Shown here: in pieces, positions 2,374-37,945 of the stretch
Position numbering within the stretch: position 1 is the stretch's first letter
Layout: the number at the start of each line of letters is the position of its first letter
Assembly: GCA_046732075.1 (NCBI GenBank)
Contig: JBKPMI010000053.1
Span: 1-48,852 of the forward strand
Direction of reading: 5' to 3'
Source: Acidobacteriota bacterium
GTDB taxonomy: Bacteria; Acidobacteriota; Thermoanaerobaculia; UBA5066; Gp7-AA6
DNA: 48,852 bases
Translations under genes and position numbers: made by a program
The notes under the pieces: generated by a model
The model's input: the letters and a program-made list of their open reading frames with translations, nothing else
What the model was told of the DNA's origin: nothing
Database searches by the model: none

Positions 2374-2380
2374 TCGACAG

Positions 2381-15863: not shown

Positions 15864-15870
15864 TCCGCGT

Positions 15871-16782: not shown

Positions 16783-16932
16783 TCGATCAGTATAGGTTCC
16801 GCCGGACCGGGCAAGCCGGAGAGCAACAACGATGGCAGCTATACGACCCCTGTCTAGTGCCCAATTTGCCCGACGCGCCGTACGATTCCGCTTCGATTCG
16901 CATTTCGTCAACGTCTGCTTCGGGAGGTGGGT

Positions 16933-18414
16933 ATGAGATCTCTGATCCGGAAAGTGTGCGCCCCCGGCATCCTGGTCCTTCTTCAGACCGCCGGCATCCT
17001 GCGCGCGCAGTCTGTGGATGTTCCACTGCGAAACTGGACCGTCCCGGCGTTCACACAGTCGACCGCCGGCGGAATCCACACCCTGACCGACGTGACCGAG
17101 CCCCGGACGTTCGTCGCCGTCCAGCCCTGCCGGATCGTCGACACGCGCGGCAACGGCGCGCCGATCCAGGGCGGCATCTTCACGAACAGCACGACGCGCA
17201 CGTGGGATTTGAGCGGAATATGCGGCCTGCCGGAATCGATCGCTGCCGTCTCCGTGAACTTCACGGTCGTGGCAGCGGCGGGAATCCCGGCCGGCTCGTT
17301 CCTGCTCGCCTGGCCGACCGGCCAGGCTTTTCCGCCCACCGCGATCATGACCTATGGACCGGGCCAGATCCTTTCCAACGCGGCAATCGTGCCGCTCGGG
17401 CCCGGCGATCAGATGAACGTCGCCGTCAGCGGCTCGACGCACATCATCATGGACATCAACGGGTACTTCGCCGACAGGTTGGGCAACCCATTCAACTCCT
17501 TCGGGCTGACGAACAACAGCGGGAACGCGACGGCATACTTCACGAACGAGTCGACCGGCTGTTCGTCCGGCTGCGCCGTCGACGCTTTTTCCTACAGCAC
17601 CGGACAGGGCAAGGCGATCTCCGGCAAGATGAACTATCTCGGCAACAACTCCGCCGGGGTCTATGGCGCTCACGCGCTCGGACTCACCGGTGTCTCGTAC
17701 CCTCCGGCGGGCGTTCGCGGTGAAAGCCCGCAGCTCGGGGTGCTCGGGATCGGAAACGTCGTCGGCACGTCCGGGAGCGTCGTCGCGACGGGAACGGGGG
17801 CCTACCTCGCCGAGGGGTATATCGGCTACCACACCGCGACGTTCGACTACGGCGTTTACTCGGCCGGGCGGACGGGCGCGAGCGGAACGAAGTCGTTCGT
17901 CGACCCGCACCCGACCGACGCGTCCAAGGTGATTCGATACGTATCGCTCGAAGGCAACGAGCCCGGGACCTATTTCCGGGGGCGGGGCAGGTTCGAGCGT
18001 GGGATAGCGCGGGTCACAGTTCCCGAGGACTTCCGCCTGGTCACGGACGCCGAGGGCCTGACGGTCCAGATCACGCCGATCGGCGCGATGGCGACCGTGG
18101 GCGTGATTCGCATGGATCTGACGGAGATCCTCGTCCAATCCTCGCGCGACGTCGAGTTCTCCTACCTCGTTCAGGGTGTGCGGAAGACCCAGATGGATTC
18201 GCCCTCACCGATCGCCGAGGGTACCGAGTTCATGCCGAAATCGGCGGACGCAACGCTGCCCGCCTACTTCTCCGCCGAGCAGAGACGGCGACTGATACAG
18301 AACGGGACCTACCGCGAGGACGGCACCGTGAACATGGACACGGCGCGGCGGCTCGGCTGGGACAGAACGTGGGAGCAACGCTCGCGCCCGGCGACCCAGC
18401 CGGTCGAGCCGTGA
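16933..18414 (+). CDS. secreted tripartite paralog 2 (type-B C-module), first gene of a four-paralog operon
   Basis: ATG at 16933 follows GGGAGG. The signal peptide is MRSLIRKVCAPGILVLLQTAGILRAQS. The N-module spans 17032-17469 (NWTVPAFTQST...QPCRIVDTRGNGAPIQGGIF...MDINGYF). The C-module reads KSFVDPHPTDASKVIRYVSLEGNEPGTYFRGRGRFERG..., with tail NGTYREDGTVNMDTARRLGWD. Confidence 0.9.
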   Translation: MRSLIRKVCAPGILVLLQTAGILRAQSVDVPLRNWTVPAFTQSTAGGIHTLTDVTEPRTFVAVQPCRIVDTRGNGAPIQGGIFTNSTTRTWDLSGICGLPESIAAVSVNFTVVAAAGIPAGSFLLAWPTGQAFPPTAIMTYGPGQILSNAAIVPLGPGDQMNVAVSGSTHIIMDINGYFADRLGNPFNSFGLTNNSGNATAYFTNESTGCSSGCAVDAFSYSTGQGKAISGKMNYLGNNSAGVYGAHALGLTGVSYPPAGVRGESPQLGVLGIGNVVGTSGSVVATGTGAYLAEGYIGYHTATFDYGVYSAGRTGASGTKSFVDPHPTDASKVIRYVSLEGNEPGTYFRGRGRFERGIARVTVPEDFRLVTDAEGLTVQITPIGAMATVGVIRMDLTEILVQSSRDVEFSYLVQGVRKTQMDSPSPIAEGTEFMPKSADATLPAYFSAEQRRRLIQNGTYREDGTVNMDTARRLGWDRTWEQRSRPATQPVEP

Positions 18415-18467
18415 ACCAAGATTAGGAGAAACCCGTCCGCCCCCGACGCTTTTCAAAGGAGGATTTC

Positions 18468-19961
18468 GTGCGCGCGACGCTCATCTGTTCCGGGATCCTG
18501 CTGATCTCGTCCCTCGGTCTCGCCCAGGACGTCGACGTTTCGCTCCACAACTGGACGGTGCCGCCCTACAGCGAAGCGTCCGCCGGCGGCATCCACACGA
18601 TGACCGACGCGACACCGCCGCGCGCGTTCGTTGGCGTCGTGCCCTGCAGGGTTGCCGACACGCGCGGCAACGGCGCGCCGATCCAGGGCGGAATCTTCGG
18701 AAACAGCGAAGCTCGAAACTGGACGATCTGGGGTGTCTGCGGGATCCCCGTCGAAGCGGATGCCATCTCGGTCAACTTCACCGTCGTCAGCGCGCCTGCG
18801 ACTCCCCAGGGAGGATTTTTGCTGGCCTGGCCGACTGGTCTGCCTCCGGCCAGCACGACCGCACTCATGACCTATGGCCCGGGCGTCACCGTGATCTCGA
18901 ACGCCGCGATCATTCCCCTGAGCAACGGAGCCGGACAGTTGACAGTAAACGCCAGCCACTCGACGCACATCATCATGGACGTCAACGGCTACTTCACCGA
19001 CAGGCTGAATCCCTTCACGAGCGGTTTTCGTCTGGAAAGCTCGGGTGCGGGAGCCACCGCGAGTTTCCTGAACACCAACACCGGTTGCAGCAACCCGGGA
19101 TGTGCCATTTCCGCAATTACCAACACCGTCGTCGACGGCAAGGCAATCGGCGGCCAGACTCCGACCGGCGGCATCCACTCGGCCGGGGTTTGGGGGCGGC
19201 AAGGCGGTCCACTGTTCATACAGACGGCTTACGGCGGCGCCGGAGTCCGGGGGGAGAGCCACAGCCTCGGTGTTCTCGGTATCACGAACACGGAAGTCGC
19301 CTTCGGAGTAGGAGCCTCCGGTTCACTCCTCAACGCGAACGGAAGCGCCGCTCTCGCCGAGGGGTACCTCGGTTACTACACGGGTGTGTCTTACGGCGTC
19401 TACTCGGCCGGGAATGCTCACGTACAGGGGACGCTCACGGCTGTGACGAAGTCGTTCGTGCAGCCGCACCCGAAGGACGCGAGCAAGGAGATCGAGTATG
19501 TCTCCTTAGAAGGACCTCACTCCGAGGTTTACTTTCGCGGCACGGCGCAGATTTCCCACGGCGTCACGCGGATTGCCATTCCGGAGCACTTTCGGCTCGT
19601 CGCGGATCCAGGTACGTATTCGACTCTCGTCACGCCGGTTGGCGGCATGGCAACCGTTGCCGTCCTCTCCGAAGGCGGAGACGGCATCGTGGTCCAGGCG
19701 TCCCGAAACGTGAAGATCCACTATGTCGTGTACGCCGAGCGCGAGGCGGTACCTCATCCCGATCCGATCGTCGAGAACATCCACTTCCGGCCGAACCCGA
19801 ATACCGATTTCTCCGCGCACCTGCCGGAAAGCTTCCGCCAACTTCTCATCCGTAACGGAACGCTCAACCCGGACGGCACCGTGAATACCGAGACGGTGCG
19901 ACGGCTCGGGTGGGCGTCCGCAACGCAAGCGCCGATGCGAGCGTCCGCGGCTGCTCCCTAG
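18468..19961 (+). CDS. secreted tripartite paralog 3 (C-module intermediate between types A and B)
   Basis: GTG start follows AAGGAGG. It has a signal peptide ending GLAQD and the N-module NWTVPPYSEAS...VPCRVADTRGNGAPIQGGIF. The C-module KSFVQPHPKDASKEIEYVSLEGPHSEVYFRGTAQ... mixes type-A and type-B signatures. Confidence 0.9.
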   Translation: MRATLICSGILLISSLGLAQDVDVSLHNWTVPPYSEASAGGIHTMTDATPPRAFVGVVPCRVADTRGNGAPIQGGIFGNSEARNWTIWGVCGIPVEADAISVNFTVVSAPATPQGGFLLAWPTGLPPASTTALMTYGPGVTVISNAAIIPLSNGAGQLTVNASHSTHIIMDVNGYFTDRLNPFTSGFRLESSGAGATASFLNTNTGCSNPGCAISAITNTVVDGKAIGGQTPTGGIHSAGVWGRQGGPLFIQTAYGGAGVRGESHSLGVLGITNTEVAFGVGASGSLLNANGSAALAEGYLGYYTGVSYGVYSAGNAHVQGTLTAVTKSFVQPHPKDASKEIEYVSLEGPHSEVYFRGTAQISHGVTRIAIPEHFRLVADPGTYSTLVTPVGGMATVAVLSEGGDGIVVQASRNVKIHYVVYAEREAVPHPDPIVENIHFRPNPNTDFSAHLPESFRQLLIRNGTLNPDGTVNTETVRRLGWASATQAPMRASAAAP

Positions 19962-19998
19962 TGGAGTTCCCTTCACGTCTTTGCTTTGGGAGGTACCG

Positions 19999-21492
19999 AT
20001 GCAACGGCAGATCCTGTTCGCCACACTCTTTCTTTCCGCTGCACTTTTCCGGGCCCAGGAGATTCCGCTGAACAACTGGACCGTGCCCCCCTATTCGGCG
20101 GCGTCCGCCGGCGGCATCCATACGATGACCGACGTCATCGCGCCGCGAGCGTTCGTCGCCGTCCAGCCGTGCCGGATCGCCGACACCCGCGGCAACGGCG
20201 CTCCGATCCAGGGTGGAACTTTCGGGAGCAGCGAATCGCGAAACTGGTCGGTGGGCGGAGTTTGCGGCCTTCCGAACGGTTTCAACCCGGCGGCGATCTC
20301 GGTCAACTTCACCGTGGTCAGCGCGGCCGCGACCCCGCAGGGCGCGTTTCTTCTCGCGTGGCCGACCGGATCCCCACCCGCCAACGCCGTGGCGATCATG
20401 ACCTTCGGGCCCGGCACCACGGTCATCTCGAACGCGGCGATCGTGCCGATTAACGCCGCAGCGCAGTTGACGGTCAACGTGAGCAACTCGACTCACGTCA
20501 TCATGGACGTGAACAGCTACTTCAGCGATGCCCCCGCGAACCCGGCCAGCAGTCTCCTGCTGGTGACCTCCGGTGGCGCTCCGACGGCAAACTTCCGCAA
20601 CGCCTCATCAGCCTGCGCCATCAACGGATGCGCGATCAACGGAAGCGCCGACACGAACTCCGGCACGGCCGTCGCGGGCGTTGCTCCCTTTGGGGGAAGC
20701 AGCTCCGCCGGGCTCTTCGGCAGCCAGGGGATCCCGGCGCTCGGGAATCACCTTCCGGCGCCCGGGTATCCCGGGGCGGGCGTTCGCGGCGAGAGCCGCA
20801 CGCTGGGGGTCCTCGGCATCACGAACTCGAGCGTTGCCGGCAGCGTCGCCGTCGCGGGTTCGCTCCTCAACACCTCCGGCGCACCCCTGGCCGAGGGATA
20901 CGTCGGCTATCACACCGCGGGCCTGAACTACGGGCTCTTCACGACGGCGAACCTCGGGGGCGCCGGATCGAAGTTTTTCGTGGAGCCTCACCCCACGGAC
21001 GCCTCCAAGGTCATTCGGTACATCTCGCTCGAGGGACCCGAGACGGGAACGTACTTCCGCGGCCGCGGGAAGTTTCAGCGCGGGATGGCGCGGATCGCGG
21101 TCCCCGAAGACTTCCGGATGGTGACCGCGGAGGACGGCCTGAGCGTCCAGGTCACTCCGATCGGAGGGATGGCTTCGGTCGGAGTCCTGAGGGTGAACCT
21201 GAACGAAATCGTCATCGCCGGGTCGAGGGATCTCGAGTTCTATTACACGGTCAACGGTATCCGGCGAACGCAGAAGCATCTGACTTCTCCAATCGGCGAG
21301 GGCACCGAGTTCATGCCTCGATCGCCGGATGCGCAGATGCCGCTGTCGTTCAGCGAGGAGCAGAGGCGCCTCCTCATACAGAACGGGACATACAAGGCGG
21401 ACGGCACGGTCAACCTGGAAACCGCCCGCCGATTGGGGTGGGACCGGACATGGGAAGAGCGCTCACACCCCGGCCCGCAACCCGCCGAGTAG
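19999..21492 (+). CDS. secreted tripartite paralog 4 (type-B C-module)
   Basis: ATG at 19999 follows GGGAGG, giving MQRQILFATLFLSAALFRAQE. It has N-module NWTVPPYSAAS...QPCRIADTRGNGAPIQGGTF and C-module KFFVEPHPTDASKVIRYISLEGPETGTYFRGRGKFQRG. Confidence 0.9.
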   Translation: MQRQILFATLFLSAALFRAQEIPLNNWTVPPYSAASAGGIHTMTDVIAPRAFVAVQPCRIADTRGNGAPIQGGTFGSSESRNWSVGGVCGLPNGFNPAAISVNFTVVSAAATPQGAFLLAWPTGSPPANAVAIMTFGPGTTVISNAAIVPINAAAQLTVNVSNSTHVIMDVNSYFSDAPANPASSLLLVTSGGAPTANFRNASSACAINGCAINGSADTNSGTAVAGVAPFGGSSSAGLFGSQGIPALGNHLPAPGYPGAGVRGESRTLGVLGITNSSVAGSVAVAGSLLNTSGAPLAEGYVGYHTAGLNYGLFTTANLGGAGSKFFVEPHPTDASKVIRYISLEGPETGTYFRGRGKFQRGMARIAVPEDFRMVTAEDGLSVQVTPIGGMASVGVLRVNLNEIVIAGSRDLEFYYTVNGIRRTQKHLTSPIGEGTEFMPRSPDAQMPLSFSEEQRRLLIQNGTYKADGTVNLETARRLGWDRTWEERSHPGPQPAE

Positions 21493-21543
21493 AGCAAATT
21501 CCCGCGAAGCGTGGAACTCTCTTCCGATTTCAGGAGGTGGTGA

Positions 21544-23172
21544 ATGCACAGAACTCTCCGTCTGGTGCTTCTCGGCGGACTCGTTTCCTCCTTCGGCGTA
21601 GCGCAAGAAGTGAACGTGCCGCTACAGAACTGGACCGTTCCACCGTACACGACGGCTTCGACCGGCGGCATCCGCACGATGACCGACGTCTCGGGTCCGC
21701 GGCCCTTCGTGCCGATCGTGCCGTGCCGGGTCGCCGACACGCGTGGCAACGGGGCTCCGATCACAGGAGGCATCTTTGCCAATAGCGAGGCGCGTGACTG
21801 GCTGATCTGGGGCAAGTGTGGGATTCCCTCGGGCGCGGATGCGATCTCCGTCAACTTCACCGTCGTGAGCGCGGCGGCGACGCCGCAGGGCGCCTTTCTT
21901 CTCGCATGGCCGACGGGATCGCCGCCGCCTCCCGGCTCCATCACGGCGATCGTCACCTACGGTCCGGGCGTCACGGTCATCTCCAACGCCGCGATCGTCC
22001 CCCTCGGGCAAAGCGCCGGACAGATGACCGTGAACGTCAGCAACTCGACCCACATCATCATGGACGTCAACGGGTACTTCTCCGACATCCTTCAGATGCC
22101 CTTGAACGGCTTCGCGGTCAGGAACGAGTCGAACGCGATCCCGACCATGGACGTCCGAAATGACGCCTCGAACTGCACGCTCCCGGACGGCTGTGCGATT
22201 CGCGCATCGAGTTTTACTGGAAATGCCGTCTCGGGTTACGCGCAGCAGCCCGGCACGGCCGCCACGTACGGGGTTCGAGGAAGTGTCTCGTCGCAGGGGC
22301 CGCTCGCCGCAGGCGTGAAAGGCGAGGGCTATTACAGAGGCATCCACGGGGCGGGAGCAAACGTCACCGACGCCTCGGGAGTCTTCGGAAACTTCGGCGT
22401 CACCCTGGTGGTCGGTAGTTCCTATGGTCCGTACCTCCCGCACGGCGTTCGAGGAGAGGGGTCGCTGGGAGGCGTGCTCGGAATCTCGCCCTACGAGGGC
22501 GTCGCCGGCTCTCTGCTCAACGCCTCGGGCGGCGAGATCGCGTGGGGCGCACTCGGTCTCGCGCTGAACGTCGCCACCGACCCGGGCTGCCCCACGAATC
22601 CCTGCAGCGGCCCCTGGGCGGTCATGGCCGGCGGCAACATCGGCGCCACCGGAAACAAGTATTTTCTGGAACCGCACCCGACAGATCCCAACCTCTCAAT
22701 CGCGTACATTTCACTCGAGGGGCCGGAGGCCGGAACGTATTTCCGCGGCCGCGGGCGGTTCCTGAACGGCACCGCACGGATCCCGGTGCCGGAGCACTTT
22801 CGTCTCGTCACCGATCCGGAAGGTCTGACGGTTCAGATCACGCCGATCGGCGAAATGGCGAGCTTCGCCGTCGTTCGGATGGGACTCGACGAGATCGTCG
22901 TAAAGGCGTCGCGCAACGTCGAGTTCTCGTATCTGGTGCAGGGAGTTCGGGCGAGCTTCCGGGACGCGCAGCCGTTGCGGCAGGGGGGCGATTTCATGCC
23001 GAGATCTCCGGACGCGAAAATGCCGCTCTGGCTCTCTCCGGCGCAGAGACGGACTCTCGTTCGGAACGGAACGTATCGCGAGGACGGCACCGTTAACATG
23101 GAGACCGCCCGACACCTCGGTTGGGACAAGGTCTGGGAAGAGCACGCGCCGGGCGGACCCGAAGAACGCTAG
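21544..23172 (+). CDS. secreted tripartite paralog 5 (type-B C-module)
   Basis: ATG follows CAGGAGG. The signal peptide is MHRTLRLVLLGGLVSSFGVAQE. It has N-module NWTVPPYTTAS...VPCRVADTRGNGAPITGGIF, a long Gly-rich core and C-module KYFLEPHPTDPNLSIAYISLEGPEAGTYFRGRGRF. Confidence 0.9.
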   Translation: MHRTLRLVLLGGLVSSFGVAQEVNVPLQNWTVPPYTTASTGGIRTMTDVSGPRPFVPIVPCRVADTRGNGAPITGGIFANSEARDWLIWGKCGIPSGADAISVNFTVVSAAATPQGAFLLAWPTGSPPPPGSITAIVTYGPGVTVISNAAIVPLGQSAGQMTVNVSNSTHIIMDVNGYFSDILQMPLNGFAVRNESNAIPTMDVRNDASNCTLPDGCAIRASSFTGNAVSGYAQQPGTAATYGVRGSVSSQGPLAAGVKGEGYYRGIHGAGANVTDASGVFGNFGVTLVVGSSYGPYLPHGVRGEGSLGGVLGISPYEGVAGSLLNASGGEIAWGALGLALNVATDPGCPTNPCSGPWAVMAGGNIGATGNKYFLEPHPTDPNLSIAYISLEGPEAGTYFRGRGRFLNGTARIPVPEHFRLVTDPEGLTVQITPIGEMASFAVVRMGLDEIVVKASRNVEFSYLVQGVRASFRDAQPLRQGGDFMPRSPDAKMPLWLSPAQRRTLVRNGTYREDGTVNMETARHLGWDKVWEEHAPGGPEER

Positions 23173-23195
23173 TTTCCGCGTTTCGCACGAACACC

Positions 23196-23229
23196 AAAGC
23201 CCCGGCTCGCGCCGGGGCTTTCGTTTTTT
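23196..23229 (+). terminator. rho-independent terminator (hairpin family 1), between convergent genes
   Basis: AAA-GCCCCGGC-TCGC-GCCGGGGC-TTTCGTTTTTT. The identical 20-nt hairpin recurs at 27216 and 30994. Confidence 0.8.
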
Positions 23230-23241
23230 CAGACGCCGGGG

Positions 23242-25248
23242 CTACTCCGCCAGGCCGGCGCGACGGAGCAACTCCGGAAAGCGGGGATCCCCGCGGAGGG
23301 GGTCGTAAAGCGGATCGACCTTCAACGCCGGATGGACGATCCGCTCCCGGAACAGGTTCTCCAGCAACGCGAGCGCCTTTTCCTTCTCGTTCACGCCGAT
23401 GTAGGCGATCGGAAGCATCACCATCGGGTTCCGTGGCTCGCGGCGTGCGAACTCCTCCAGCCTTTCGAGCGCGCGGCGAGCTTCGGCGTCGCGGCCCTGG
23501 CGCCCGTACACGTAGACTTCGGCTGCCCAGTTCCACGGCCCGTCATCGATCTGGCGCCATTTCTCGATTTCTGCGAGCGCCTCGTCGAACATCTGCTTCT
23601 GCGAGTACGCCCACACGATCGTGTAAGCCCGCGGAAACGCCGCATCTCTCTCGATCACGGCGCGAAATCGTTCGATGGCGCGGTCGTACTGGCGGGCGTA
23701 GTACAGGATCGCACCGTCGTCCGCGGCGATGATCAGCGACAATGGATCGAGCCGGCGCGCGCGATCGCTTTCTTCGAGCGCCTCGCGAAATCGTCCCTGG
23801 AAAGACAGCAGCTCGGCATACCAATGGTGCGCCGTGGCGTAGCTCGGATTCAGCTGGATGGCACGGCGAAACTCTTTCTCGGCGGCCTTCCAATCCCAGT
23901 CATATCTTTCGTGGATCAGCGCGAGGGAGTTGTGGGCCTCGGCCAGACGATCGTCGAGCTCGAGCGCCCGCAGCGCGGCCGAGCGCGCCTTCGGCATGAG
24001 CTCCTTCGCCGATCCCGGGCTGTAGGTGCTCATCAGCGCGTAGGTATCGGCCACGCCGGCGTAAGCCCGTGCGTACGTCGGATCCTTTTCCGCCGCCCGC
24101 TCGAAATGCTCCACGGCCTTCGCGAAGTCCTCCCCCGTCCGCTTGTTCCAGAAGTGGCGGCCCTTGAGATAGAGGTCGTACGCTTCGTACGACTCCGGTG
24201 AAAGCGGCGCTGGATGGCCGTCGATCCGAGTCCCGGGAGCGAGCGTCAGATCGATCTCGTTCGCGACAGCCTGCGCGATCTCCTCCTGGACCGCGAGCAC
24301 GCTCTTCACTTCACGGTCGTACTGCCGGGCCCAGAGATGCGTCCCATCGCGCACCTGAATGAGCTGGGCGCTGATCCGCATCCGGTTTGCTTCACGCCGG
24401 ACACTGCCTTCGAGCAGGTAGTCGATGCGGAGATCCCGGCCGATCTGATCGAGCCGCGCCCGATTGCGTTTGTAGGGCATGACCGATGTGCGCGCGATTA
24501 CCCCGAGCCGCTGGGGGTCGAATGCCCCCAGTCGACTGATCATTTCCTCGGTCAAACCATCGCTGAAGTATTCCTGGGAAGGATCGCCCGTGAGGTTCTC
24601 GAACGGCAGCACCGCCATCATCAACCGTCCGCCGACCGGCGGAGCTTTGCTTCTCTGAAGGTAGATGAGCGGAGCGACGATCAGGAGGAGCCCGAGGCCG
24701 AGCAGGATCGGCCAGCGGCCGGAAACGGGATTGGCGCGGAGGTTTTCGCCTTTCCTCGCGGGGGTCTCCGCCGGTTCGACGGAAGGGGCGGGAACCGCGG
24801 AAGCCGAAGCAGCAGAGGCGGGCGGTGCTTCCTCCACGACCGCCGCGACGAACCGGTAACCCTTTCCGGTGACGGTCTGGATGACCCGGGGCTTCTCCGG
24901 GTCGTCTCGCAACGCCTGCCGGAGCTTGCGGATGGCGCCGTTGATGCTGTTGTCGGTATCCAGAAAGACTTCCCTGCCCCAGACCCGCTCGACGATCTCG
25001 TCCCGGCTGACGAGCTGTCCCTTCCTTTCGACGAGGAGGAGCAGGATTTCCATCGGAATCCGCTCGAGCTTGAGCGGACGTCCCGAGCGGCGCAGCTCGT
25101 AGGCGCGGGGGTCGAGCTCGAAAATCTGCCCGAATCGGAGAGGCCGCGGGATCCTGGCGGGGTCGGGTTCCACGGTGGTCGTCCCCGGCTTCCGGGGAGC
25201 GTGACTGTACATCGGCTCCGAATTCGCGGCAAATCCAAACGGCACCAC
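23242..25248 (-). CDS. membrane-anchored CadC/ToxR-like transcriptional regulator (OmpR/PhoB-type winged helix + TM + TPR), copy 1
   Basis: 668-aa ORF. The N-terminal trans_reg_C-like domain reads ELRRSGRPLKLERIPMEILLLLVERKGQLVSRDEIVERVWG...TVTGKGYRF. A single TM helix (WPILLGLGLLLIVAPLIYL) and the MAVLPFENLTGDP...YFSDGLTEEMISRLG region follow, then multiple TPR-like repeats. Confidence 0.85.
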   Translation of the reverse strand: MVPFGFAANSEPMYSHAPRKPGTTTVEPDPARIPRPLRFGQIFELDPRAYELRRSGRPLKLERIPMEILLLLVERKGQLVSRDEIVERVWGREVFLDTDNSINGAIRKLRQALRDDPEKPRVIQTVTGKGYRFVAAVVEEAPPASAASASAVPAPSVEPAETPARKGENLRANPVSGRWPILLGLGLLLIVAPLIYLQRSKAPPVGGRLMMAVLPFENLTGDPSQEYFSDGLTEEMISRLGAFDPQRLGVIARTSVMPYKRNRARLDQIGRDLRIDYLLEGSVRREANRMRISAQLIQVRDGTHLWARQYDREVKSVLAVQEEIAQAVANEIDLTLAPGTRIDGHPAPLSPESYEAYDLYLKGRHFWNKRTGEDFAKAVEHFERAAEKDPTYARAYAGVADTYALMSTYSPGSAKELMPKARSAALRALELDDRLAEAHNSLALIHERYDWDWKAAEKEFRRAIQLNPSYATAHHWYAELLSFQGRFREALEESDRARRLDPLSLIIAADDGAILYYARQYDRAIERFRAVIERDAAFPRAYTIVWAYSQKQMFDEALAEIEKWRQIDDGPWNWAAEVYVYGRQGRDAEARRALERLEEFARREPRNPMVMLPIAYIGVNEKEKALALLENLFRERIVHPALKVDPLYDPLRGDPRFPELLRRAGLAE

Positions 25249-25346
25249 TTCTTGCGCCGACAGGAAAGCCCCAGCACCTCGACAGCCCTTCGCTATTGCC
25301 GGGGCCCCTTGCCGCCGCCAGCGTGCCCTCGGAAAGGAGCCGAACC

Positions 25347-27188
25347 ATGAAGAGGGCTCGAGTTTCGCGGAAGGAGTCGAGCGCGCGTCATCCAGGCGAC
25401 CTCATCGGCAGGTCGCAGAGGACGCCTCTTCGAAGGACGGTCATGTCTGCGGGCCTCGCGGCGGTTCTGATCACTTCGAGCCTGTCCGCCCAGGATGTTC
25501 CCCTCCACAACTGGACGGTTCCGCCCTATTCGGCGACCAGCGGCAGCGGGATCCACACGATGACCGACGCGACGCCGCCCCGCGCCTTCGTGGGACTCGT
25601 CCCCTGCCGCGTCGCGGACACCCGGGGCAACGGCGCTCCGATCCAAGGCGGCATCTTCGGCAACAGCACGGCGCGCGACTGGACGGTGTCGGGAATTTGC
25701 GGGATCCCGGCGGGCGCCGATGCGATCTCCGTCAACTTCACCGTCGTCAGTACCGCGGCGACTCCGCAGGGAGCATTCCTTCTCGCCTGGCCGACCGGAT
25801 CGCCGCCTGCCAACCCGGTGGCGATCATGACCTACGGTCCCGGTGTCACGGTCATTTCCAACGCGGCGATCGTGCCGCTGAACGGATCCGGGCAGCTGAC
25901 CGTCAACGTCAGCCATTCGACGCACGTCATCATGGACGTCAACGGGTACTTTTCCGACAGGATCGGGAACCCGGCCAACTACCTCGAACTGTGGAACAAC
26001 GCTCCCGGCCTCCCGACGGCGTTCATCGTCAATTCTTCGACCGCGGACAATTCCTCCGGCGTATACGGCGTGGCCGCGGGCGGCGCGGCCACTCCGCTCT
26101 ATCCGGCGGCAGGCGTGCACGGGGAGAGTCCGTTCTTGGGCGTTCTCGGCGCCTCGTTTGCGCGGGGCGTCGTCGGAAGCCTCATGTCAACGCCGAACCC
26201 TTTCTCGTCGGAGCTCGCCCAAGGAATTCTCGCCTACCATGTCGACATTGCCGATCCCGCGATCCATGGTCTGGACGTCGGCGCCTTCGGCCAAACGGCA
26301 AGCTCGGTCGCCCAGTCGGCCGGCGTCATCGGCTACAACACAGCGCAGACCGGTGCGGTGGCCGGCGTCCGCGGCGTCATCGGCAGTCAGTCCGCCGGCG
26401 CGGCCGGGGTGCGGGGGCAGGACGGAGGGGGCGCTGTCGGTAACCCCAACGGTCAAAAGGCCGAATTCCCTTACCGAGCGAGCACCGGAGTACGGGGCGA
26501 ATCCCACCTGAACAACGGAGTCTTCGGGCTCACGAACCTGGGAATTGGGGTCATGGGCGAGGCGATCAACGCCAATGGTTTTGTCAATGCGTACGGCTTT
26601 CTGGGCCGCGGCGGCAACACGAATCTGGGCGTCTACGCGGGCGGAAGCTTCGAGGCCAGCGGGTCGAAGAGCTTCGTGGACCCGCATCCCACTGACCCAT
26701 CGAAAGTGATCCGGTATTACTCGCTCGAAGGACCCGAGTCCGGCACGTATTTCCGGGGGCGGGGAAAGTTCGAGCGCGGGATCGCGCAAATCACCGTGCC
26801 CGACGACTTCCGCATGGTCACGGATCCCGGCGGTCTCACCGTGCAGGTGACCCCGATCGGCAGCATGGCGTCCTTCGCGGTGCTTCGAGCAGATTTGAAC
26901 GAGATCGTCGTGCAGTGCTCGAGAAACGTCGAGTTCTATTACCTGGTCCAGGGAGTCCGCGCGACTCATCCAGATCTCAAACCATTCGGCCCCGGGGACG
27001 AGTTCCGGCCGGAAAGTGCCGACGCCCGGCTCCCCCTCTGGTTGTCGGAAGGTCAGAAACGGCTTCTGATCCAGAACGGCACCTACAACGCGGACGGCAC
27101 GGTCAACATGGAGACCGCGCGTCGTCTCGGGTGGGACAAGATCTGGGAAGAACGCTCCCGACCCGAGCCGCAACCGACGGAACCCTGA
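25347..27188 (+). CDS. secreted tripartite paralog 6 (longest core, type-B C-module)
   Basis: ATG at 25347 follows GAAAGGAG; an alternative start at 25443 gives MSAGLAAVLITSSLSAQD. It has N-module NWTVPPYSATS...VPCRVADTRGNGAPIQGGIF, a G[VI]xG-rich core at about 25953-26663, and C-module SKSFVDPHPTDPSKVIRYYSLEGPESGTYFRGRGKFERG. Confidence 0.85.
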   Translation: MKRARVSRKESSARHPGDLIGRSQRTPLRRTVMSAGLAAVLITSSLSAQDVPLHNWTVPPYSATSGSGIHTMTDATPPRAFVGLVPCRVADTRGNGAPIQGGIFGNSTARDWTVSGICGIPAGADAISVNFTVVSTAATPQGAFLLAWPTGSPPANPVAIMTYGPGVTVISNAAIVPLNGSGQLTVNVSHSTHVIMDVNGYFSDRIGNPANYLELWNNAPGLPTAFIVNSSTADNSSGVYGVAAGGAATPLYPAAGVHGESPFLGVLGASFARGVVGSLMSTPNPFSSELAQGILAYHVDIADPAIHGLDVGAFGQTASSVAQSAGVIGYNTAQTGAVAGVRGVIGSQSAGAAGVRGQDGGGAVGNPNGQKAEFPYRASTGVRGESHLNNGVFGLTNLGIGVMGEAINANGFVNAYGFLGRGGNTNLGVYAGGSFEASGSKSFVDPHPTDPSKVIRYYSLEGPESGTYFRGRGKFERGIAQITVPDDFRMVTDPGGLTVQVTPIGSMASFAVLRADLNEIVVQCSRNVEFYYLVQGVRATHPDLKPFGPGDEFRPESADARLPLWLSEGQKRLLIQNGTYNADGTVNMETARRLGWDKIWEERSRPEPQPTEP

Positions 27189-27210
27189 CTCCGACCATTC
27201 GAGAGCAAAC

Positions 27211-27244
27211 AAAGGGCCCCGGCTCGCGCCGGGGCTTTCGTTTT
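27211..27244 (+). terminator. rho-independent terminator (hairpin family 1)
   Basis: GCCCCGGC-TCGC-GCCGGGGC at 27216-27235, followed by TTTCGTTTT. It lies between paralog 6 and convergent regulator copy 2. Confidence 0.8.
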
Positions 27245-27254
27245 GACGACCAAT

Positions 27255-29237
27255 TCAATCCGCCAGGCCGGCGCGGCGGAGAATGTTTTGAAAGCGGGAA
27301 TCTTCGCGGAGGGGATCGTAGAAGGGATCCACCTTCAACGTCGCGATGACGCTCGACCGGTCGCGGAAGAGCTTCTCCAGGGAGTCGAGCGCCTTCTCTT
27401 TCTCGTTCACCCCAATGTAGGCAACGGGAAGCATCGGCATCGGGTCCGCCGGTCGATCCCGGCCCCACCGTTCCAGCCTTTCGAGCGCCTGGCGGGCCTC
27501 GGCGTGCCGGCCCAGGCGTTCGTACACGCAAACTTGAGCCGCCCAGCTCCAGGTCTGGTCCGCGATGCTGCGCCACTTCTCGACCTGCGCCAGAGCCTCC
27601 GAGTACATGCCCTTCTGCAGGTACGGCCAGACCACCATGTTGGCCTTCAGGAAGCGCGGTTCCCTCTCGAGTACCGAGCGGAACTCGTCGATCGCACGAT
27701 CGGGTTGCCCCGCGAAGTACCGGATCGTGGCGTGATCGGTCGAGATGATCAGAGAGAGCGGATCGAGCCGGCTGGCGCGCTCGCTCTCGACGAGGGCTTC
27801 ACGGAACCGTCCCTGGAAGGCCAGGAACTCGGCGTACCAGTGATGGGCCGTCGAATAGTTCGGCCCCAGCTCGATGGCCCGGCGAAACTCTTTCTCGGCG
27901 GACTTCCAGTCCCAATCGAACTGCTCCCGGATGAGCGCGAGGGACGTGTGGGCTTCGGCCAGGCGGTCATCGAGGTCGAGCGCCCGGATGGCCGCCGAGC
28001 GGGCCTTCGGCATGAGCTCCATCGGCGATCCGAGGTCGTAGGTGCTCATCAGAGCGTAGGCGTCCGCCAGGCCCGAATAGGAACGCGCGTACGCGGGATC
28101 CTTTTCCGCGGCCCGCGCGAAGTAAGCCACGGCCCGTTCGAACCCGTCGGCCGTACGCAGGTTCCAGAAGTAGCGGCCCTTCAGATAGAGGTCGTAGGCT
28201 TCGTAGCCTTCAGGTGAGAGGAGCGCGGGAGCGCCGGCCCGATTGCCGGGCTCGAGCGTGAGCTGGATCTGGTCCGCCACGGCCTGCGCAATCTCTTCCT
28301 GGACCGCCACGAGGCTGCTCAACTCGCGGTCGTACTGCCGCGACCAGAGATGGGTCTGATCGCTCATCTGGATGAGCTGGGCGCTGATCCGCACGCGGTC
28401 TGCGTCGCGCCGGACACTCCCTTCCAGCACGTAATCCACGCCCAGCTCACGGCCGATCCGGTCGAGCGAGGGCCGATCCCGGTACTGCATGACCGAGGTC
28501 CGCGCGATGATCGCCAGGCGCTGGGGATCGAGGTTTCCCAATCGGCCGATCATCTCTTCGGTCAGCCCGTCGCTGAAGTAGTCCTGCGCCGGATCGCCGG
28601 TCAGGTTTGCGAAGGGAAGAACCGCCAGCATTCGCCGCCGCCGGAGGAGTCGGGCGCGGGGCTGTTGGAGATAGACCGCACCCGCGATGAGCGCGAGCGC
28701 AAGACCAAGCACGATCAGCCGGTGCCGGGACGAGGGAGATGTTGCGGGGATTCCTGGACCTTCCCCTTGCGGGCGATCTCTCGGCTGAGGCCCGGCCTCG
28801 GAGACAGGAGCCGGGGAATGGGCGATGTCGGAGGCATCCTCCTCGACGGGAGCGATGAACCGGTAGCCTTTGCCGGTGACCGTCTGGATGAAACGCGGCT
28901 TCTCCGGATCGTCCCGCAGGACCAGGCGGAGCTTCCGGATCGCGGTGTTGACACTGTTGTCCACGTCAACGAAAACTTCCGGGCCCCAGACTCTTTCGAC
29001 GATCTGCTCGCGCGTGACGAGCTCTCCCCTCCGTTCGACCAACACGAGGAGCAGTTCCATCGGGATGCGCTCGAGTTTGAGAGCGCGGCCGGAGCGCCGA
29101 AGCTCGTAGGCGCGGAAGTCGAGCTCGAAAACCCGGCCGAATCGGACGGGCCTGGGAATCCCGGCTGGATCGAGTTCCACGGGCAGTTCCCTGGAGCAGG
29201 GAGCGAAACTGTAACCCGGCTCCGGATTCGGGCGCAA
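27255..29237 (-). CDS. membrane-anchored CadC/ToxR-like transcriptional regulator (winged helix + TM + TPR), copy 2
   Basis: 660-aa ORF collinear with 23242..25248 and similar along its whole length, with the same winged helix, single TM helix, LAVLPFANLTGDP...YFSDGLTEEMIGRLG region and TPR region. Confidence 0.85.
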   Translation of the reverse strand: MRPNPEPGYSFAPCSRELPVELDPAGIPRPVRFGRVFELDFRAYELRRSGRALKLERIPMELLLVLVERRGELVTREQIVERVWGPEVFVDVDNSVNTAIRKLRLVLRDDPEKPRFIQTVTGKGYRFIAPVEEDASDIAHSPAPVSEAGPQPRDRPQGEGPGIPATSPSSRHRLIVLGLALALIAGAVYLQQPRARLLRRRRMLAVLPFANLTGDPAQDYFSDGLTEEMIGRLGNLDPQRLAIIARTSVMQYRDRPSLDRIGRELGVDYVLEGSVRRDADRVRISAQLIQMSDQTHLWSRQYDRELSSLVAVQEEIAQAVADQIQLTLEPGNRAGAPALLSPEGYEAYDLYLKGRYFWNLRTADGFERAVAYFARAAEKDPAYARSYSGLADAYALMSTYDLGSPMELMPKARSAAIRALDLDDRLAEAHTSLALIREQFDWDWKSAEKEFRRAIELGPNYSTAHHWYAEFLAFQGRFREALVESERASRLDPLSLIISTDHATIRYFAGQPDRAIDEFRSVLEREPRFLKANMVVWPYLQKGMYSEALAQVEKWRSIADQTWSWAAQVCVYERLGRHAEARQALERLERWGRDRPADPMPMLPVAYIGVNEKEKALDSLEKLFRDRSSVIATLKVDPFYDPLREDSRFQNILRRAGLAD

Positions 29238-29351
29238 ATCCCCTGACCGGTAGCGGTTAGGCCTTCAGGAAAGCTCCAGCCACCCTACAGACCGCGTCCA
29301 TTGCCGCGGTTCCGCGCCGGCGGCAGGGTGCCCGCCGAAAGGAGCACTCGC

Positions 29352-30965
29352 ATGGACACGGGAGGTTGGGTGAAACCGGGTCGGCTCGCTTTGGGTCTCT
29401 TCCTCGGTGCGGCCGGGCTCCACGCCCAGGCCGACGTCCCTCTTTCGAACTGGACGGTGCCCCCATATGCAGCCTCCTCCGCGGGCGGCATCACCACGAT
29501 GACCGACGTCACGCAGGGAATCGGGTTCGTCGGGATCACACCCTGCCGGGCCGCCGATACGCGCGGCAACGGCGCCCCGATCCAGGGGGGCATCTTTCCC
29601 GACAGCGGTCTGCGGACGTGGGACCTGACCGGGATCTGCGGCATTCCCGCGGGTGCCGATGCGGTCTCGGTCAATTTCACGGTCGTTCCAACCGTGGCGG
29701 CGCCCTCCGGGGCGTTCCTTCTGGCGTGGCCGACCGGCCAGGCGCCCCCGCCCACCGCGATCATGACTTACGGGCCGGGCCAGACGATCATCTCGAACGC
29801 GGCGATCGTGCCTCTCGGCGCCGGCGAGCAGATGCAGGTCAACGTCAGCCACTCGACTCACGTCATCATGGACGTCAACGGATACTTCACGGACGCCTAC
29901 AACCCCGGGGTCCGTTTTACAGCAACCATCTCGGGGGTGGGAGGGGCGGTCCAAGGGAGAAACGTCGCGACTCTGGCGGGTGCATACGGGGTCGAGGGCA
30001 GCATTTCAACGACAACCTCGGCAAACAGCTCTGCCGGGGTGCGCGGCATCAACGACGGGACGGGAGCCGCCGGAATCGGAGTCTGGGGATCCCAGGCCGG
30101 CAGCGGCTGGGGCGTCTTCGGCGAAGCGCCGACGGGCTTCGGCGTCGTCGGGAGAGTCGCAACGGACATCGCCAACAGGGCCGGAGTGCTGGGACAGTCG
30201 GGATTCGTCACTCCGGCTGGCAGCTACTCGACGGCGGGCGTTCGTGGCGAAGGGAGAGCCGGCGTGCTCGGGGTCAGCGGAAACTTCCTGGGCGGAGGTG
30301 AAGCAGTCGTCGGGTCTCTGGTCGACGGCTTCGGCGCCGAGATCCGATACGGTTCACTCGCAACCAGTTTCGGAGTCAATCCCTCGGGCGGCAGTGCTCC
30401 CTGGGCGGTCTTCGGGGGCGGAGACATCGGCGCGACCGGGACGAAACACTTCCTCGACCCGCATCCGACCGACGCGGCCAAGGAAATCGCCTATATCTCG
30501 CTCGAAGGGCCGGAGGCCGGGACGTATTTCCGCGGGCGCTCCAAGTTCCAGAACGGCATGGCGCGGATTCCCGTGCCCGACCATTTCCGTTTCGTGACGG
30601 ATCCGGAGGGTCTGACCGTGCAGATCACGCCAATTGGGGCGATGGCGAGCGTCGCCGTCCTGAAGATGGACTTGAACGAGATCGTCGTCCAGGCTTCCCG
30701 CAACGTGGAGTTCTCCTACCTGGTTCAGGGAGTTCGCTCCACGTTCAAGGACCTTTCCCCGATCCGGGAAAGCGGCGACTTCATGCCCCGGTTCGCCGAC
30801 GCGAAGATGCCGGGGTGGTTGAGTCCCGCTCAAAAGCGCCTGCTCATCCAGAACGGGACCTACCGGGAGGACGGCACGGTCAATTCGGAGACCGCGCAAC
30901 GTCTGGGTTGGGACAAGGTCTGGGAGCAGCGCTCCCGACCCGCGCCGCAAGCCTCCCAGCCCTAA
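29352..30965 (+). CDS. secreted tripartite paralog 7 (type-B C-module)
   Basis: ATG at 29352 follows GAAAGGAG, giving MDTGGWVKPGRLALGLFLGAAGLHAQAD. It has N-module NWTVPPYAASS...TPCRAADTRGNGAPIQGGIF and C-module KHFLDPHPTDAAKEIAYISLEGPEAGTYFRGRSKF. Confidence 0.9.
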   Translation: MDTGGWVKPGRLALGLFLGAAGLHAQADVPLSNWTVPPYAASSAGGITTMTDVTQGIGFVGITPCRAADTRGNGAPIQGGIFPDSGLRTWDLTGICGIPAGADAVSVNFTVVPTVAAPSGAFLLAWPTGQAPPPTAIMTYGPGQTIISNAAIVPLGAGEQMQVNVSHSTHVIMDVNGYFTDAYNPGVRFTATISGVGGAVQGRNVATLAGAYGVEGSISTTTSANSSAGVRGINDGTGAAGIGVWGSQAGSGWGVFGEAPTGFGVVGRVATDIANRAGVLGQSGFVTPAGSYSTAGVRGEGRAGVLGVSGNFLGGGEAVVGSLVDGFGAEIRYGSLATSFGVNPSGGSAPWAVFGGGDIGATGTKHFLDPHPTDAAKEIAYISLEGPEAGTYFRGRSKFQNGMARIPVPDHFRFVTDPEGLTVQITPIGAMASVAVLKMDLNEIVVQASRNVEFSYLVQGVRSTFKDLSPIRESGDFMPRFADAKMPGWLSPAQKRLLIQNGTYREDGTVNSETAQRLGWDKVWEQRSRPAPQASQP

Positions 30966-30987
30966 ACATCCCCCGGGCAACCGGAAA

Positions 30988-31022
30988 GAAAAAGCCCCGG
31001 CTCGCGCCGGGGCTTTGATTTC
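30988..31022. terminator. bidirectional rho-independent terminator (hairpin family 1), shared by paralog 7 and groEL
   Basis: GAAAAA-GCCCCGGC-TCGC-GCCGGGGC-TTTGATTT. There are T-runs after the hairpin on both strands (minus strand reads ...GGGGCTTTTTCTTTCC). Confidence 0.8.
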
Positions 31023-31045: not shown

Positions 31046-32710
<1,665 letters not shown>

Positions 32711-36165: not shown

Positions 36166-36361
36166 ATTCCGGCGGCCTGCGGACCTTGGAGGAGGAGGCG
36201 GCCATCGATTCCGTGGCAAGTGGTGTACGGGATGCGGTCTTAACCGCAATGGCGCACCCCTGTTCACCCCCACACACAACCGGATCGAAAGGAGGCGGGA
36301 AACCCAGACTTTCGTCGCTCGTCGTCAGAAGCCTTCGAAAGCCTTAAAGGAGGGAATCGAA
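36166..36361 (+). ncRNA. conserved long 5' leader of paralog 8 (candidate cis-regulatory RNA)
   Basis: The first ~65 nt (ATTCCGGCGGCCTGCGGACC...GGAGGAGGCGGCCATCGATTCCGT.GCAA.TGGTGTAC) are nearly identical to 38138 onward. A hairpin lies at 36233-36248, and a second conserved box CAACCGGATCGAAAGGAGGCGGGA lies at 36277-36300. A 1-nt indel and non-codon-like substitutions argue against coding. Confidence 0.45.
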
Positions 36362-37945
36362 ATGAAGTTCTCGAAACAACTCGGTTTCGGAATCACTCTC
36401 CTGCTTCTCGCCTCCGGTTTCGGCCTTGCCCAGAACATTCCCCTGAACAACTGGACCGTTCCGCCCTACGCGCAGTCGTCGCACAGCGGCGGCATCACGA
36501 CTATGACCGACGTGACGTCTCCCCGGGCATTCGTCGGCGTTCAGCCCTGCCGCGTCGCCGATACCCGTGGAAATGGCGCGCCCATCCAGGGCGGGATCTT
36601 CCCCAACAGCGGCCTGCGCACATGGGACGTCACCGGCATCTGCGGGATCCCCGCCGGCGCCGATGCGATCTCGGTGAACTTCACCGTCGTTGCGGCCGCC
36701 GGAATCCCGGCCGGCTCGTTCCTGCTGGCCTGGCCGACTGGCCAGGCGCCCCCGCCCACCGCGATCATGACTTATGGGCCGGGTCAGGTCATTTCGAACG
36801 CGGCGATCGTGCCGCTCGGCCCGGGTGAGCAGCTGAACGTCAACGTCAGCGGAAGCACCCACGTGATCATGGACGTCAACGGCTATTTCTCCGACAGGCT
36901 GCAGGATCCGACCCACTTTCTGGAGATTGACAACAACTCCACCGGGTACACGATTCGTATCGACAACGCATCCACATCCTGCAACGGCGCCTGCGGGCTG
37001 AGAGCGACCACGGCGAGCGGCTGGGCCGTCTCGGGTTACTCTCCGACTGACGTCGGTGTGAGGGGCGATTCAGACAGCTATAACGGCGTGTGGGCGCAGG
37101 CGACGAACTGGGACGCGCTCGCGGCCTTCGGCGGGCGAGACGGCGGCTATCTCCAGGGCGCGCGGCACGGGGCCATCGGCACGTCGACCAATACAACCGA
37201 TGCCGTATACGGCGTCATCGGAAGCGGTGTCTCCGCCAACGTCTTTTCGGCAGGCGTCTCCGGTCAGGTCAACCACGCGGCCGCGAATGCGGCTCGGTTC
37301 ATCAACAGCGGTCTTTCCAACGCGGACGTCTATGTCGGGACCAATTCCGGCGGCGTCGAATATGGTGTCCTGGCGCCCAACCTCAGGCTCCAAGCCGGTT
37401 CGCTCGTCATCACGGGGGCCACGAAGAACTTCGCGGCGCCTCACCCCGAAGACCCTTCGAAGGAGATCAAGTACGCCTCCGTTGAAGCTCCGACGGTGGA
37501 CGTCTATTTCCGGGGAACCGCGGAGCTCGTCAACGGAATCGCGCGGATCGCGATCCCGGATCACTTTCGTTTCACGGCGCGGGAAGGGACCTACATGACG
37601 ACGCTGACGCCAGTCGGTCGATCGGTTACCCTGAGCGTCGATCAGGAAGGTCCTGACGGAATCGTTGTTCGCGGCTCAGGAACCACTCGATTCCACTATG
37701 TCGTTTTCGCCGAGCGTGCCGAAATAGAAGGCTTCGAGCCCGTCCAGCGAAACGAAAGCTTCACTCCCGAAATGCTCGAAAGAGGTGGCGGTCCTCAGCA
37801 CCTTCCGGCACCGACGAGAGCACTTCTCGTGCGGAACGGGACCCTGAATCCCGACGGCACGTATAACCTCGAAACGGCGCGCGCCCTGGGCTGGACGATT
37901 CCCGAGCGTCCGACAGTGGCTCCGGCGCCCATTCCGAACCCCTGA
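36362..37945 (+). CDS. secreted tripartite paralog 8 (type-A C-module)
   Basis: ATG follows AAAGGAGGG. The signal peptide is MKFSKQLGFGITLLLLASGFGLAQN. It has N-module NWTVPPYAQSSHSGGITTMTD...QPCRVADTRGNGAPIQGGIF. The C-module KNFAAPHPEDPSKEIKYASVEAPTVDVYFRGTAELVNG...REGTYMTTLTPVG is closest to paralog 1. Confidence 0.9.
   Translation: MKFSKQLGFGITLLLLASGFGLAQNIPLNNWTVPPYAQSSHSGGITTMTDVTSPRAFVGVQPCRVADTRGNGAPIQGGIFPNSGLRTWDVTGICGIPAGADAISVNFTVVAAAGIPAGSFLLAWPTGQAPPPTAIMTYGPGQVISNAAIVPLGPGEQLNVNVSGSTHVIMDVNGYFSDRLQDPTHFLEIDNNSTGYTIRIDNASTSCNGACGLRATTASGWAVSGYSPTDVGVRGDSDSYNGVWAQATNWDALAAFGGRDGGYLQGARHGAIGTSTNTTDAVYGVIGSGVSANVFSAGVSGQVNHAAANAARFINSGLSNADVYVGTNSGGVEYGVLAPNLRLQAGSLVITGATKNFAAPHPEDPSKEIKYASVEAPTVDVYFRGTAELVNGIARIAIPDHFRFTAREGTYMTTLTPVGRSVTLSVDQEGPDGIVVRGSGTTRFHYVVFAERAEIEGFEPVQRNESFTPEMLERGGGPQHLPAPTRALLVRNGTLNPDGTYNLETARALGWTIPERPTVAPAPIPNP

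Follow-up and report, generated by a model that had tools for sequence, protein, structure and literature searches.

What does a membrane-anchored regulator do when it stands back to back with the gene of a secreted, fibre-like protein, and was such a pair duplicated as a unit? The question arises on a contig from a metagenome-assembled genome (MAG) of the Acidobacteriota (hereafter the window: the whole contig, 48,852 nt, about 68% G+C). The window encodes nine paralogs, F0 to F8, of a secreted fibre-like protein of about 500–610 amino acids. It has only two regulators of the type considered here, R1 and R2, and only F5 and F6 face one. An earlier reading made from the letters and their open reading frames (ORFs), the sequence-only reading, had described the two pairs as a tandem duplication in which a dedicated regulator controls its neighbouring fibre gene; F5 and F6 are its paralogs 6 and 7. 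Our analysis leads us to regard the two pairs as probable ancient tandem regulator–target cassettes, in which CadC/ToxR-like one-component regulators would each be wired to the promoter of the facing fibre gene.

The nucleotide alignment of the two units with blastn bears out their homology, their collinearity and the coordinates originally assigned to them (23242–27244 and 27255–31022). Positions 23199–25340 and 27216–29345 are 73.5% identical in DNA over 2169 columns (E=0). Two further matches cover the fibre N-domain (25509–25951 and 29448–29887, 73%) and the C-domain together with the hairpin behind it (26625–27238 and 30401–31016, 71%). The cores of the two fibre genes gave no DNA match in this search. 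The regulators, as the sequence-only reading had it, are similar along their full length (66% protein identity) while the fibre cores diverge.

The claim that each pair was duplicated as a unit holds for the regulator and the control region, and there the event is old. The hairpin, the regulator and the control region are collinear and homologous between the units, and the regulators form sister clades. The fibres F5 and F6 have their nearest paralogs elsewhere in the window and not in one another, and the fibre therefore stays outside the duplication that can be demonstrated. Gene conversion among the fibre paralogs could mask a common origin. The duplication itself is an ordinary evolutionary event.

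R1 and R2 share one architecture (Table 1). Their winged helix matches Pfam Trans_reg_C (PF00486; E=2.7e-20 for R1 and 8.5e-20 for R2), and TPR families are matched as well. The closest solved sequence to the winged helix is the DNA-binding domain of CadC (5ju7), followed by response regulators and ToxR; OmpR and PhoB domains were also matched. Neither Pfam nor NCBIfam gave a Response_reg match in R1 or R2, and the matches to response regulators span only the C-terminal DNA-binding part of these proteins, indicating one-component regulators. Each protein contains one hydrophobic window of 19 residues (Kyte-Doolittle 2.3 and 2.0); the transmembrane (TM) helix of R1 reads WPILLGLGLLLIVAPLIYL. 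The winged helix, the TPR domain and the single TM segment of the original description are thus retained, while its TolB_N-like region found no Pfam match at E<=0.01. The name ‘TolB-like protein’ stems from JGI product names only, and R2 has a weak FlgO match (0.0031) in the Pfam search.

The AlphaFold2 (AF2) model of R1 (pLDDT 79) consists of the winged helix, a disordered linker, a long helix, an alpha/beta subdomain and a TPR superhelix. A lone helix (residues 154–176) is located between low-confidence linkers, and residues ~184–643 are modelled with confidence. Generic TPR proteins aside, the fold search returned the periplasmic domain of CadC (3ly7, 3ly8 and 3lya; E ~1e-7, TM-score 0.62–0.64, about 315 columns), which makes the label ‘CadC/ToxR-like’ structurally sound. 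The model suggests that residues ~184–643 constitute an extracytoplasmic sensor, given the presumed topology. R1 and R2 are not CadC orthologs; they score 64.9 and 54.9 bits against the NCBIfam CadC equivalog NF007540, which has a cut-off of 400. The best-scoring named model is HilA/EilA (NF009037), aligned from residues 203–526 to model positions 116–427 (E=7.6e-31), with scores of 107 and 91 bits, below its cut-off of 589. The family is very large, with at least 7976 protein clusters across Acidobacteriota, many of them 56–60% identical. Transmembrane transcription regulators are reported, in a published survey, to be enriched in Acidobacteriae (PMC10269533). Our literature search returned no paper on this regulator subfamily or on the fibre family.

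The extent of the control region depends on where the regulators start. The R1 frame is open to 25248. Its most likely start is GTG 25173, since the resulting 643-residue form is exactly the protein that NCBI lists for this contig and 25174–25248 carries frame-breaking indels of 1–3 nt among orthologs; R2 likewise probably starts at GTG 29180. With these starts each control region spans about 172 nt, not about 100 nt. Between R1 and R2 the identity is 0.79 for the winged helix-turn-helix, 0.74 for the alpha/beta (TolB-like) domain, 0.69 for the TPR domain and about 0.3 for the linkers.

The 86 nt ahead of each fibre ATG align between the units without a gap and are identical at 60 of 86 positions. 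All of the shared blocks that had been named are present: CAGGAAAGCyCCAGC (25261/29266), ACAG, ATTGCCG (25295/29300, 52 nt before the ATG), GTGCCC and GAAAGGAGC. Read on the strand of the regulator, both units have the same layout, a CAAT box followed by three head-to-tail half-sites 11 bp apart, which we take as the predicted operator (Table 1). In unit 1 it includes the earlier blocks CAGGAAAGCCCCAGC, ACAG and ATTG. Unit 1 has half-sites of the type CTGTCG, whereas those of unit 2 are of the type CTGnAG. Such repeats have the form of OmpR/PhoB-type operators, in which half-sites recur head to tail every 10–11 bp. A scan of the 48.8-kb window for the operator pattern yielded these two matches only, with 0.00 expected.

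The control region has been strongly conserved within each unit. Between the window and a metagenomic locus that carries both units (L081; L-numbers denote loci fetched from other genomes and metagenomes, about 1.1 Mb in all), identity is 0.55 at the 4-fold degenerate sites of R1 (chance 0.37), 0.88 in the intergenic region and 0.96 in the operator. The excess of 0.88 and 0.96 over 0.55 indicates strong purifying selection. The predicted operator of unit 2 is 94% identical to its ortholog in L081b. By their sequences, the control regions have partly diverged between the units: unit 1 and unit 2 are 0.54 identical at 4-fold sites, 0.63 in the intergenic region and 0.68 in the operator. In an alignment of eight orthologous and paralogous control regions the blocks are fixed and the flanks variable.

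The element is not confined to fibre neighbours. A profile of the fibre-side blocks matched DNA upstream of regulator genes that have no fibre next to them. Among 77 upstream regions of the family, many have a CAAT[AG][GC] box about 110–130 nt before the start, followed by direct repeats 11 or 20–22 bp apart. On this comparison the blocks characterise the regulator family and not the fibre. Within the window, a search with an nhmmer profile of the intergenic region brought up no further copy ahead of the remaining seven fibre genes.

The half-site covaries with a single residue of the recognition helix, which reads NSINGAIRK in R1 and NSVNTAIRK in R2: G goes with CTGTCG and T with CTGnAG, in two separate lineages. 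Regulators with the NSINGAIRK (NGA) helix have CAATAGCG or a one-base variant of it, together with [CAG]TGT[CT][GC], in 18 of 20 loci, R1 included. The NS[IV]NTAIRK helix is accompanied by CAATGGA and CTGTAG in the R2 clade and, independently, in a clade far off in the tree (L125, L127 and L133). Other helix types have the repeats GGTGA[AC], TGAAG or GCTTGATTG. The variable residue presumably aligns with a base-contacting position of PhoB. Of the evidence for the repeats being the regulator's operator, this covariation is the strongest.

The pairing of regulator and fibre is stable among the relatives of the window, which are MAGs of Thermoanaerobaculia and other Acidobacteriota. L001 carries orthologs of R1 and F5. 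L002–L005 have the order R1', F5', extra fibre, R2', F6', groEL; L081 has two tandem units, and L080 a single regulator facing an F5-like fibre. The regulators are 95–99% identical to their orthologs in L002–L005, and in L081 72–73% for R1 and 87–88% for R2. The closest relatives keep the regulator on the minus strand facing the fibre on the plus strand. Every R1 ortholog is paired with an ortholog of F5 and every R2 ortholog with one of F6; the R2 and F6 orthologs adjoin in L002 and L081. In L081 (565–9787, compared with window 23242–30965) the order of the units, relative to the fibre strand, is opposite to that in the window and in L002, with R2/F6 ahead of R1/F5. The pairing is kept despite the swapped order, indicating that the units move as intact cassettes; between relatives they are rearranged and never split. 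In a neighbour-joining tree all fibre-linked regulators group in a single clade, within which R1 and R2 have branches of their own; as L080 belongs to that of R1, the duplication predates these lineages.

Beyond this clade the association is lost. The sequence-only reading had named co-occurrence of the regulator and fibre families in other genomes as a check, and our survey supports it only within the clade: of the 74 fibre loci taken from species genomes, not one carries the regulator beside a full fibre gene, and no fibre domain lies within 7 kb of any of 80 sampled members of the regulator family (36–66% identity). We therefore rejected a general association on these counts and retain a clade-specific one. 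L044 (3528–10546) is a partial exception. There a full-length relative of the regulators (54–56% identity), with the same CAAT box and repeats, is divergent from a 962-residue protein with Peptidase_S74 and many phage tail-fibre PHROG matches; the S74 gene is followed by one for a 733-residue protein that ends in the fibre C-domain. This locus ties fibre-like proteins to the regulator family a second time, beyond the R1/R2 clade.

What the family has in common is the divergent arrangement. Of 62 family loci, 60 have a divergent ORF whose start lies no more than 450 nt away, and about 51 of these ORFs have a hydrophobic, signal-peptide-like start by a crude test. The Pfam content of these neighbours comprises Tectonin, PD40, FIMAH, PEP-CTERM, Ig-like, OmpA, S74 and two ECF sigma factors. 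The plan of the family seems to be a regulator with a divergent gene for a secreted cargo, the fibre being the cargo in the R1/R2 clade.

We propose the following mechanism. A periplasmic or envelope signal would act on the membrane-anchored regulator, which would bind the half-sites head to tail, at their 11-bp spacing, within the ~172-nt control region. The bound regulator would control the fibre promoter and probably also its own promoter, 30–60 nt away. A hairpin terminator on either side would isolate each regulator–fibre pair. After the duplication, the helix residue (G in R1, T in R2) and the half-site (CTGTCG and CTGnAG) would have diverged together, and this joint divergence suggests that R1 and R2 are probably two separate switches for two fibre variants. 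We infer the binding of DNA, activation in preference to repression, the signal and the role of the fibre. Local control fits the old duplication, the pairing of each regulator with its own fibre, the constraint on the control region, the form of the predicted operator, its covariation with the recognition helix and the occurrence of only two sites in the window.

Several observations weigh against it. Such a regulator is missing from seven of the window's nine fibre paralogs and from nearly all the fibre arrays of other genomes, so fibres in general do not need one. A sigma-70 consensus scan recognised no promoter anywhere in 16.5–33 kb, and none for the fibre gene; this fits dependence on an activator and proves nothing. 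The periplasmic domains of R1 and R2 are 69–74% identical, and distinct signals are thus not evident. Finally, the cis element follows the regulator whatever its neighbour, and could serve autoregulation alone.

In this alternative the CAAT box and the repeats would be only the regulator's autoregulatory operator and promoter, the fibre promoter would be independent, and the adjacency would have been inherited in one lineage. The occurrence of the element upstream of family members regardless of neighbour and the many fibres without a regulator speak for it, as does the fact that the loci with the pairing come from related organisms. We nevertheless consider it unlikely. The pairing has outlasted near-saturated synonymous sites (0.55 against 0.37 by chance) and a swap of unit order, the 86 nt from the element to the fibre ATG show no indel between the paralogous units, and in 60 of the 62 family loci the divergent gene begins just past the element. 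Moreover, conserved divergent pairs of a regulator and its neighbour are usually regulator–target pairs.

It is quite improbable that the regulator represses, or that it acts mainly on distant genes while the local site merely tunes the divergent pair. The sequence does not reveal the direction of control, and the operator scan covers the 48.8-kb contig; however, the characterised membrane-anchored relatives ToxR and CadC activate nearby promoters (PMC10269533), and the fibre promoter lacks a recognisable -35, a typical trait of promoters that depend on an activator. Repeats in a MAG contig can be misassembled, but an assembly artefact, or a very recent duplication without functional meaning, is scarcely credible for copies just 73.5% identical in DNA, both with separate orthologs in independent JGI and ENA metagenomes and with the duplication placed before the lineage split by the tree.

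Local control by two cassettes may be one case of a wider scheme, which we put forward tentatively, as plausible though somewhat short of likely. Throughout the family, the regulator would stand back to back with a secreted cargo, with the CAAT box and the 11-bp half-sites between them, and one position of the helix would set the half-site. In the proposed code, G would specify CTGTCG, T would specify CTGnAG and A, seen in two loci only, TGAA. A change of code after the duplication would have produced two switches for fibre variants that do not cross-talk.

Table 1 Features of the two regulator–fibre units and of the rest of the window, with positions in the window
Feature	Positions	Strand	Description
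R1	23242..25173	minus	643 aa: OmpR/PhoB-type winged helix, disordered linker, one TM helix, predicted periplasmic alpha/beta + TPR superhelix
R2	27255..29180	minus	641 aa, architecture as R1
Unit 1 predicted operator	25257..25298	minus	CAATAGCG-N5-CTGTCGA-N4-CTGGGGC-N4-CTGTCGG; half-sites CTGTCGA/CTGGGGC/CTGTCGG at 25285/25274/25263
Unit 2 predicted operator	29262..29303	minus	CAATGGAC-N5-CTGTAGG-N4-CTGGAGC-N4-CTGAAGG; half-sites CTGTAGG/CTGGAGC/CTGAAGG at 29290/29279/29268
Predicted R1 promoter	25204..25232	minus	-35 TTGCCG (25232-25227), 17-nt spacer, -10 TACAGT (25209-25204)
F5	25347..27188	+	613 aa: signal peptide, conserved beta-sandwich N-domain, variable Gly-rich core, conserved C-domain
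F6	29352..30965	+	537 aa fibre paralog
Ribosome-binding site (RBS) of F5	25332..25339	+	GAAAGGAG, 7 nt ahead of ATG 25347
Hairpin copy 0	23196..23221	.	AAAGCCCCGGCTCGCGCCGGGGCTTT; between ends of F4 (+) and R1 (-)
Hairpin copy 1	27213..27238	.	between ends of F5 (+) and R2 (-)
Hairpin copy 2	30991..31016	.	between ends of F6 (+) and groEL (-)
F0	5391-6947	minus	fibre paralog
F1-F4	16927-23172	+	four fibre paralogs
F7	36362-37945		fibre paralog
F8	38329-39879		fibre paralog
groEL	31046-32689	minus	beyond F6 and hairpin copy 2
Other ORFs with the fibre N-domain	39816-41546, 41776-43512, 43525-44016, 44190-46025		

A putative promoter of R1 is located between its start and the operator. The positions of its hexamers are kept in the alignment of eight control regions; L080 has TTGCTC, an 18-nt spacer and TAGATT, and other members of the regulator family have TAGAAT at the corresponding position. 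The candidate scores below the threshold of the sigma-70 consensus scan. Two other readings of the conserved blocks were rejected: a sigma-54 -24/-12 promoter around ATTGCC by eye, as there is no GG at the required spacing, and an ECF-type reading of GGAAAGC, which is not conserved. The RBS of F5 is kept in seven of the eight regions, the L080 copy being GAAGGGAG. The 5' untranslated region of R1 (25174–25197, minus strand) may form a short hairpin, CCCCGGaagCCGGGG, next to the start codon. Its stem varies among L002a, L081a, L001 and L080 with pairing kept; the unit 2 types fold differently, and the support is weak.

The hairpin at the end of each unit is exactly the same in both, as the sequence-only reading had noted, but it does not mark the unit: a third copy lies at 23199, after F4. 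The exact 20-nt core GCCCCGGCTCGCGCCGGGGC occurs at 23199–23218, 27216–27235 and 30994–31013, three copies against 0.18 expected in the window. The hairpin has a stem of 8–11 bp (-21.7 kcal/mol), a TTT(C)GTTTT tail on the plus strand and, on its opposite flank, an A/T tract. The copies rank among the strongest terminator-like sites of the scanned 16.5–33 kb, and one flanks each side of both units. Copy 0, one of the two longest-stemmed sites in this region (11 pairs, T tail), looks like a bidirectional intrinsic terminator, a function predicted from its form.

The exact hairpin also follows the stop codons of fibres in L001–L005, L080 and L081, and in the more distant L006 and L016, neither of which has a regulator close by. 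Since it follows F4 and regulator-less fibres elsewhere, it belongs to the 3' end of the fibre, not to the unit. All 19 exact matches in the fetched loci adjoin fibre 3' ends; among their positions are 2772, 4420 and 8200 in L002, 12771 and 14884 in L006, 10061 and 13738 in L016, 4012 in L080, and 519, 4470 and 8265 in L081. The hairpin is identical, loop included, although the fibres are only about 50–65% identical and the flanking DNA is unconserved, which is unusually strict for a plain terminator. Even when Rfam was searched permissively, its matches over the terminators were all sub-threshold, and we rejected them.

The fibre family looks mosaic from the comparison of its domains. The nearest paralogs by N-domain are F2 for F5 and F7 for F6 (83% each), and by C-domain F1 for F5 (71%) and F4 for F6 (73%); the cores are about 30% identical to all others. 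More than 1000 homologs were found, every one labelled hypothetical. The fibres have no sequence match in Pfam, NCBIfam or the PDB, and Pfam detected neither Peptidase_S74 nor another known fibre domain in the paralogs of the window. Cyanophage proteins and two PHROGs of unknown function (28536 and 17490) match the C-domain. For F5, AF2 gave a confident model of the N- and C-domains only, and the core is of low confidence. The best PDB fold match is weak, to the C-terminal domains of the Bdellovibrio fibre Bd2133 (8ond_B, E=2.4e-3), with none at E<=0.001; the viral-model matches in BFVD include tail-fibre proteins. Given the weak core and the lack of a PDB match at E<=0.001, the label ‘fibre’ is tentative; ‘fibre-like’ is reasonable, though unproven.

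Counted from the ATG behind the conserved RBS, F5 begins with a basic N-terminal extension of 32 residues (25347–25445) before the hydrophobic signal core, with LRRTVM resembling a twin-arginine motif. In L002 the F5 ortholog has a shorter extension without RR, and JGI called the L001 ortholog from an internal Met. The fibre N-domain (PCRxxDTRG...VNxTV...DVNGYF, about 130–165 residues), which has no Pfam model, recurs elsewhere on the contig, where it forms the C-terminal domain in four cases: a GSDH-type dehydrogenase, a reprolysin-like metalloprotease, a small ORF and an FG-GAP protein. Three tandem copies are present in Bryobacterales and Solibacter proteins (L060–L077). From this distribution, it looks like an undescribed module common to surface proteins.

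The other fibres of the window have features of their own. F1–F4 (16927–23221) run head to tail with gaps of just 37–53 nt, and the first hairpin is at 23199; given the short gaps and the absence of an earlier hairpin, they are probably one operon ending at hairpin copy 0. F7 and F8 have a common upstream block, AACCGGATCGAAAGGAGGCGGGA, about 65–85 nt before the ATG (~36278–36300 and ~38243–38266). The block holds a second RBS-like sequence, GAAAGGAGG, and could mark a leader peptide or a common control element. The G+C content is 0.63–0.67 in 16000–44000, which contains the fibre array, the regulators and groEL, and 0.69–0.745 in 1–16000. We noticed no integrase or other mobile-element gene in the window.

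Acidobacteriota are among the most abundant soil bacteria, and almost nothing is known of their gene regulation. With this locus, one of their largest regulator families becomes testable in a concrete case, as it supplies a predicted operator, a predicted specificity residue and a natural pair of diverged copies. If the proposed scheme is true, the targets of thousands of unannotated regulators would be readable from sequence, and the fibre family would gain its first functional handle, as surface structures controlled by an envelope signal.

The kind of system is already known; the interesting part is the family-wide operator plan and the relation of helix to half-site. R1 and R2 resemble CadC of Escherichia coli in their OmpR-type winged helix, disordered linker, single TM helix, periplasmic alpha/beta domain with helical repeats and lack of a kinase. 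They differ from it in a periplasmic part of about 460 residues with a much longer TPR superhelix, and in their context, which is not cadBA/lysP but fibre genes and groEL; the putative target is a divergent fibre-like gene and the predicted operator an array of 11-bp direct repeats. ToxR of Vibrio cholerae is likewise a membrane-anchored winged-helix protein (R1 and R2 match 7nmb and 8b4b) and binds tandem direct repeats. Whereas the periplasmic domain of ToxR is small and ToxS is its partner, R1 and R2 have a TPR sensor, and no partner gene was seen beside them. With HilA/EilA they share an OmpR/ToxR-type DNA-binding domain followed by TPR; HilA is cytoplasmic and has no TM helix.

Among fibre-like proteins, the chimeric fibre adhesins of Bdellovibrio (PMC10769870) and phage tail fibres are comparable as many-membered secreted paralogs built of conserved and variable modules; those of the window differ from them in having conserved ends and a variable core. 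The predicted operators are closest to those of PhoB/PhoP. OmpR/PhoB-type domains bind direct repeats in tandem, head to tail (PMC4415409, PMC4832192), and the PHO box of E. coli has the core CTGTCAT (PMC4415409) in 7-bp repeats with a 4-bp spacer (PMC4832192). The half-sites of both units are likewise arranged head to tail every 11 bp, and CTGTCG of unit 1 resembles the PHO box core. Unlike PhoB/PhoP, R1 and R2 have neither receiver domain nor phosphorylation, and their predicted operators combine three half-sites with a conserved CAAT box.

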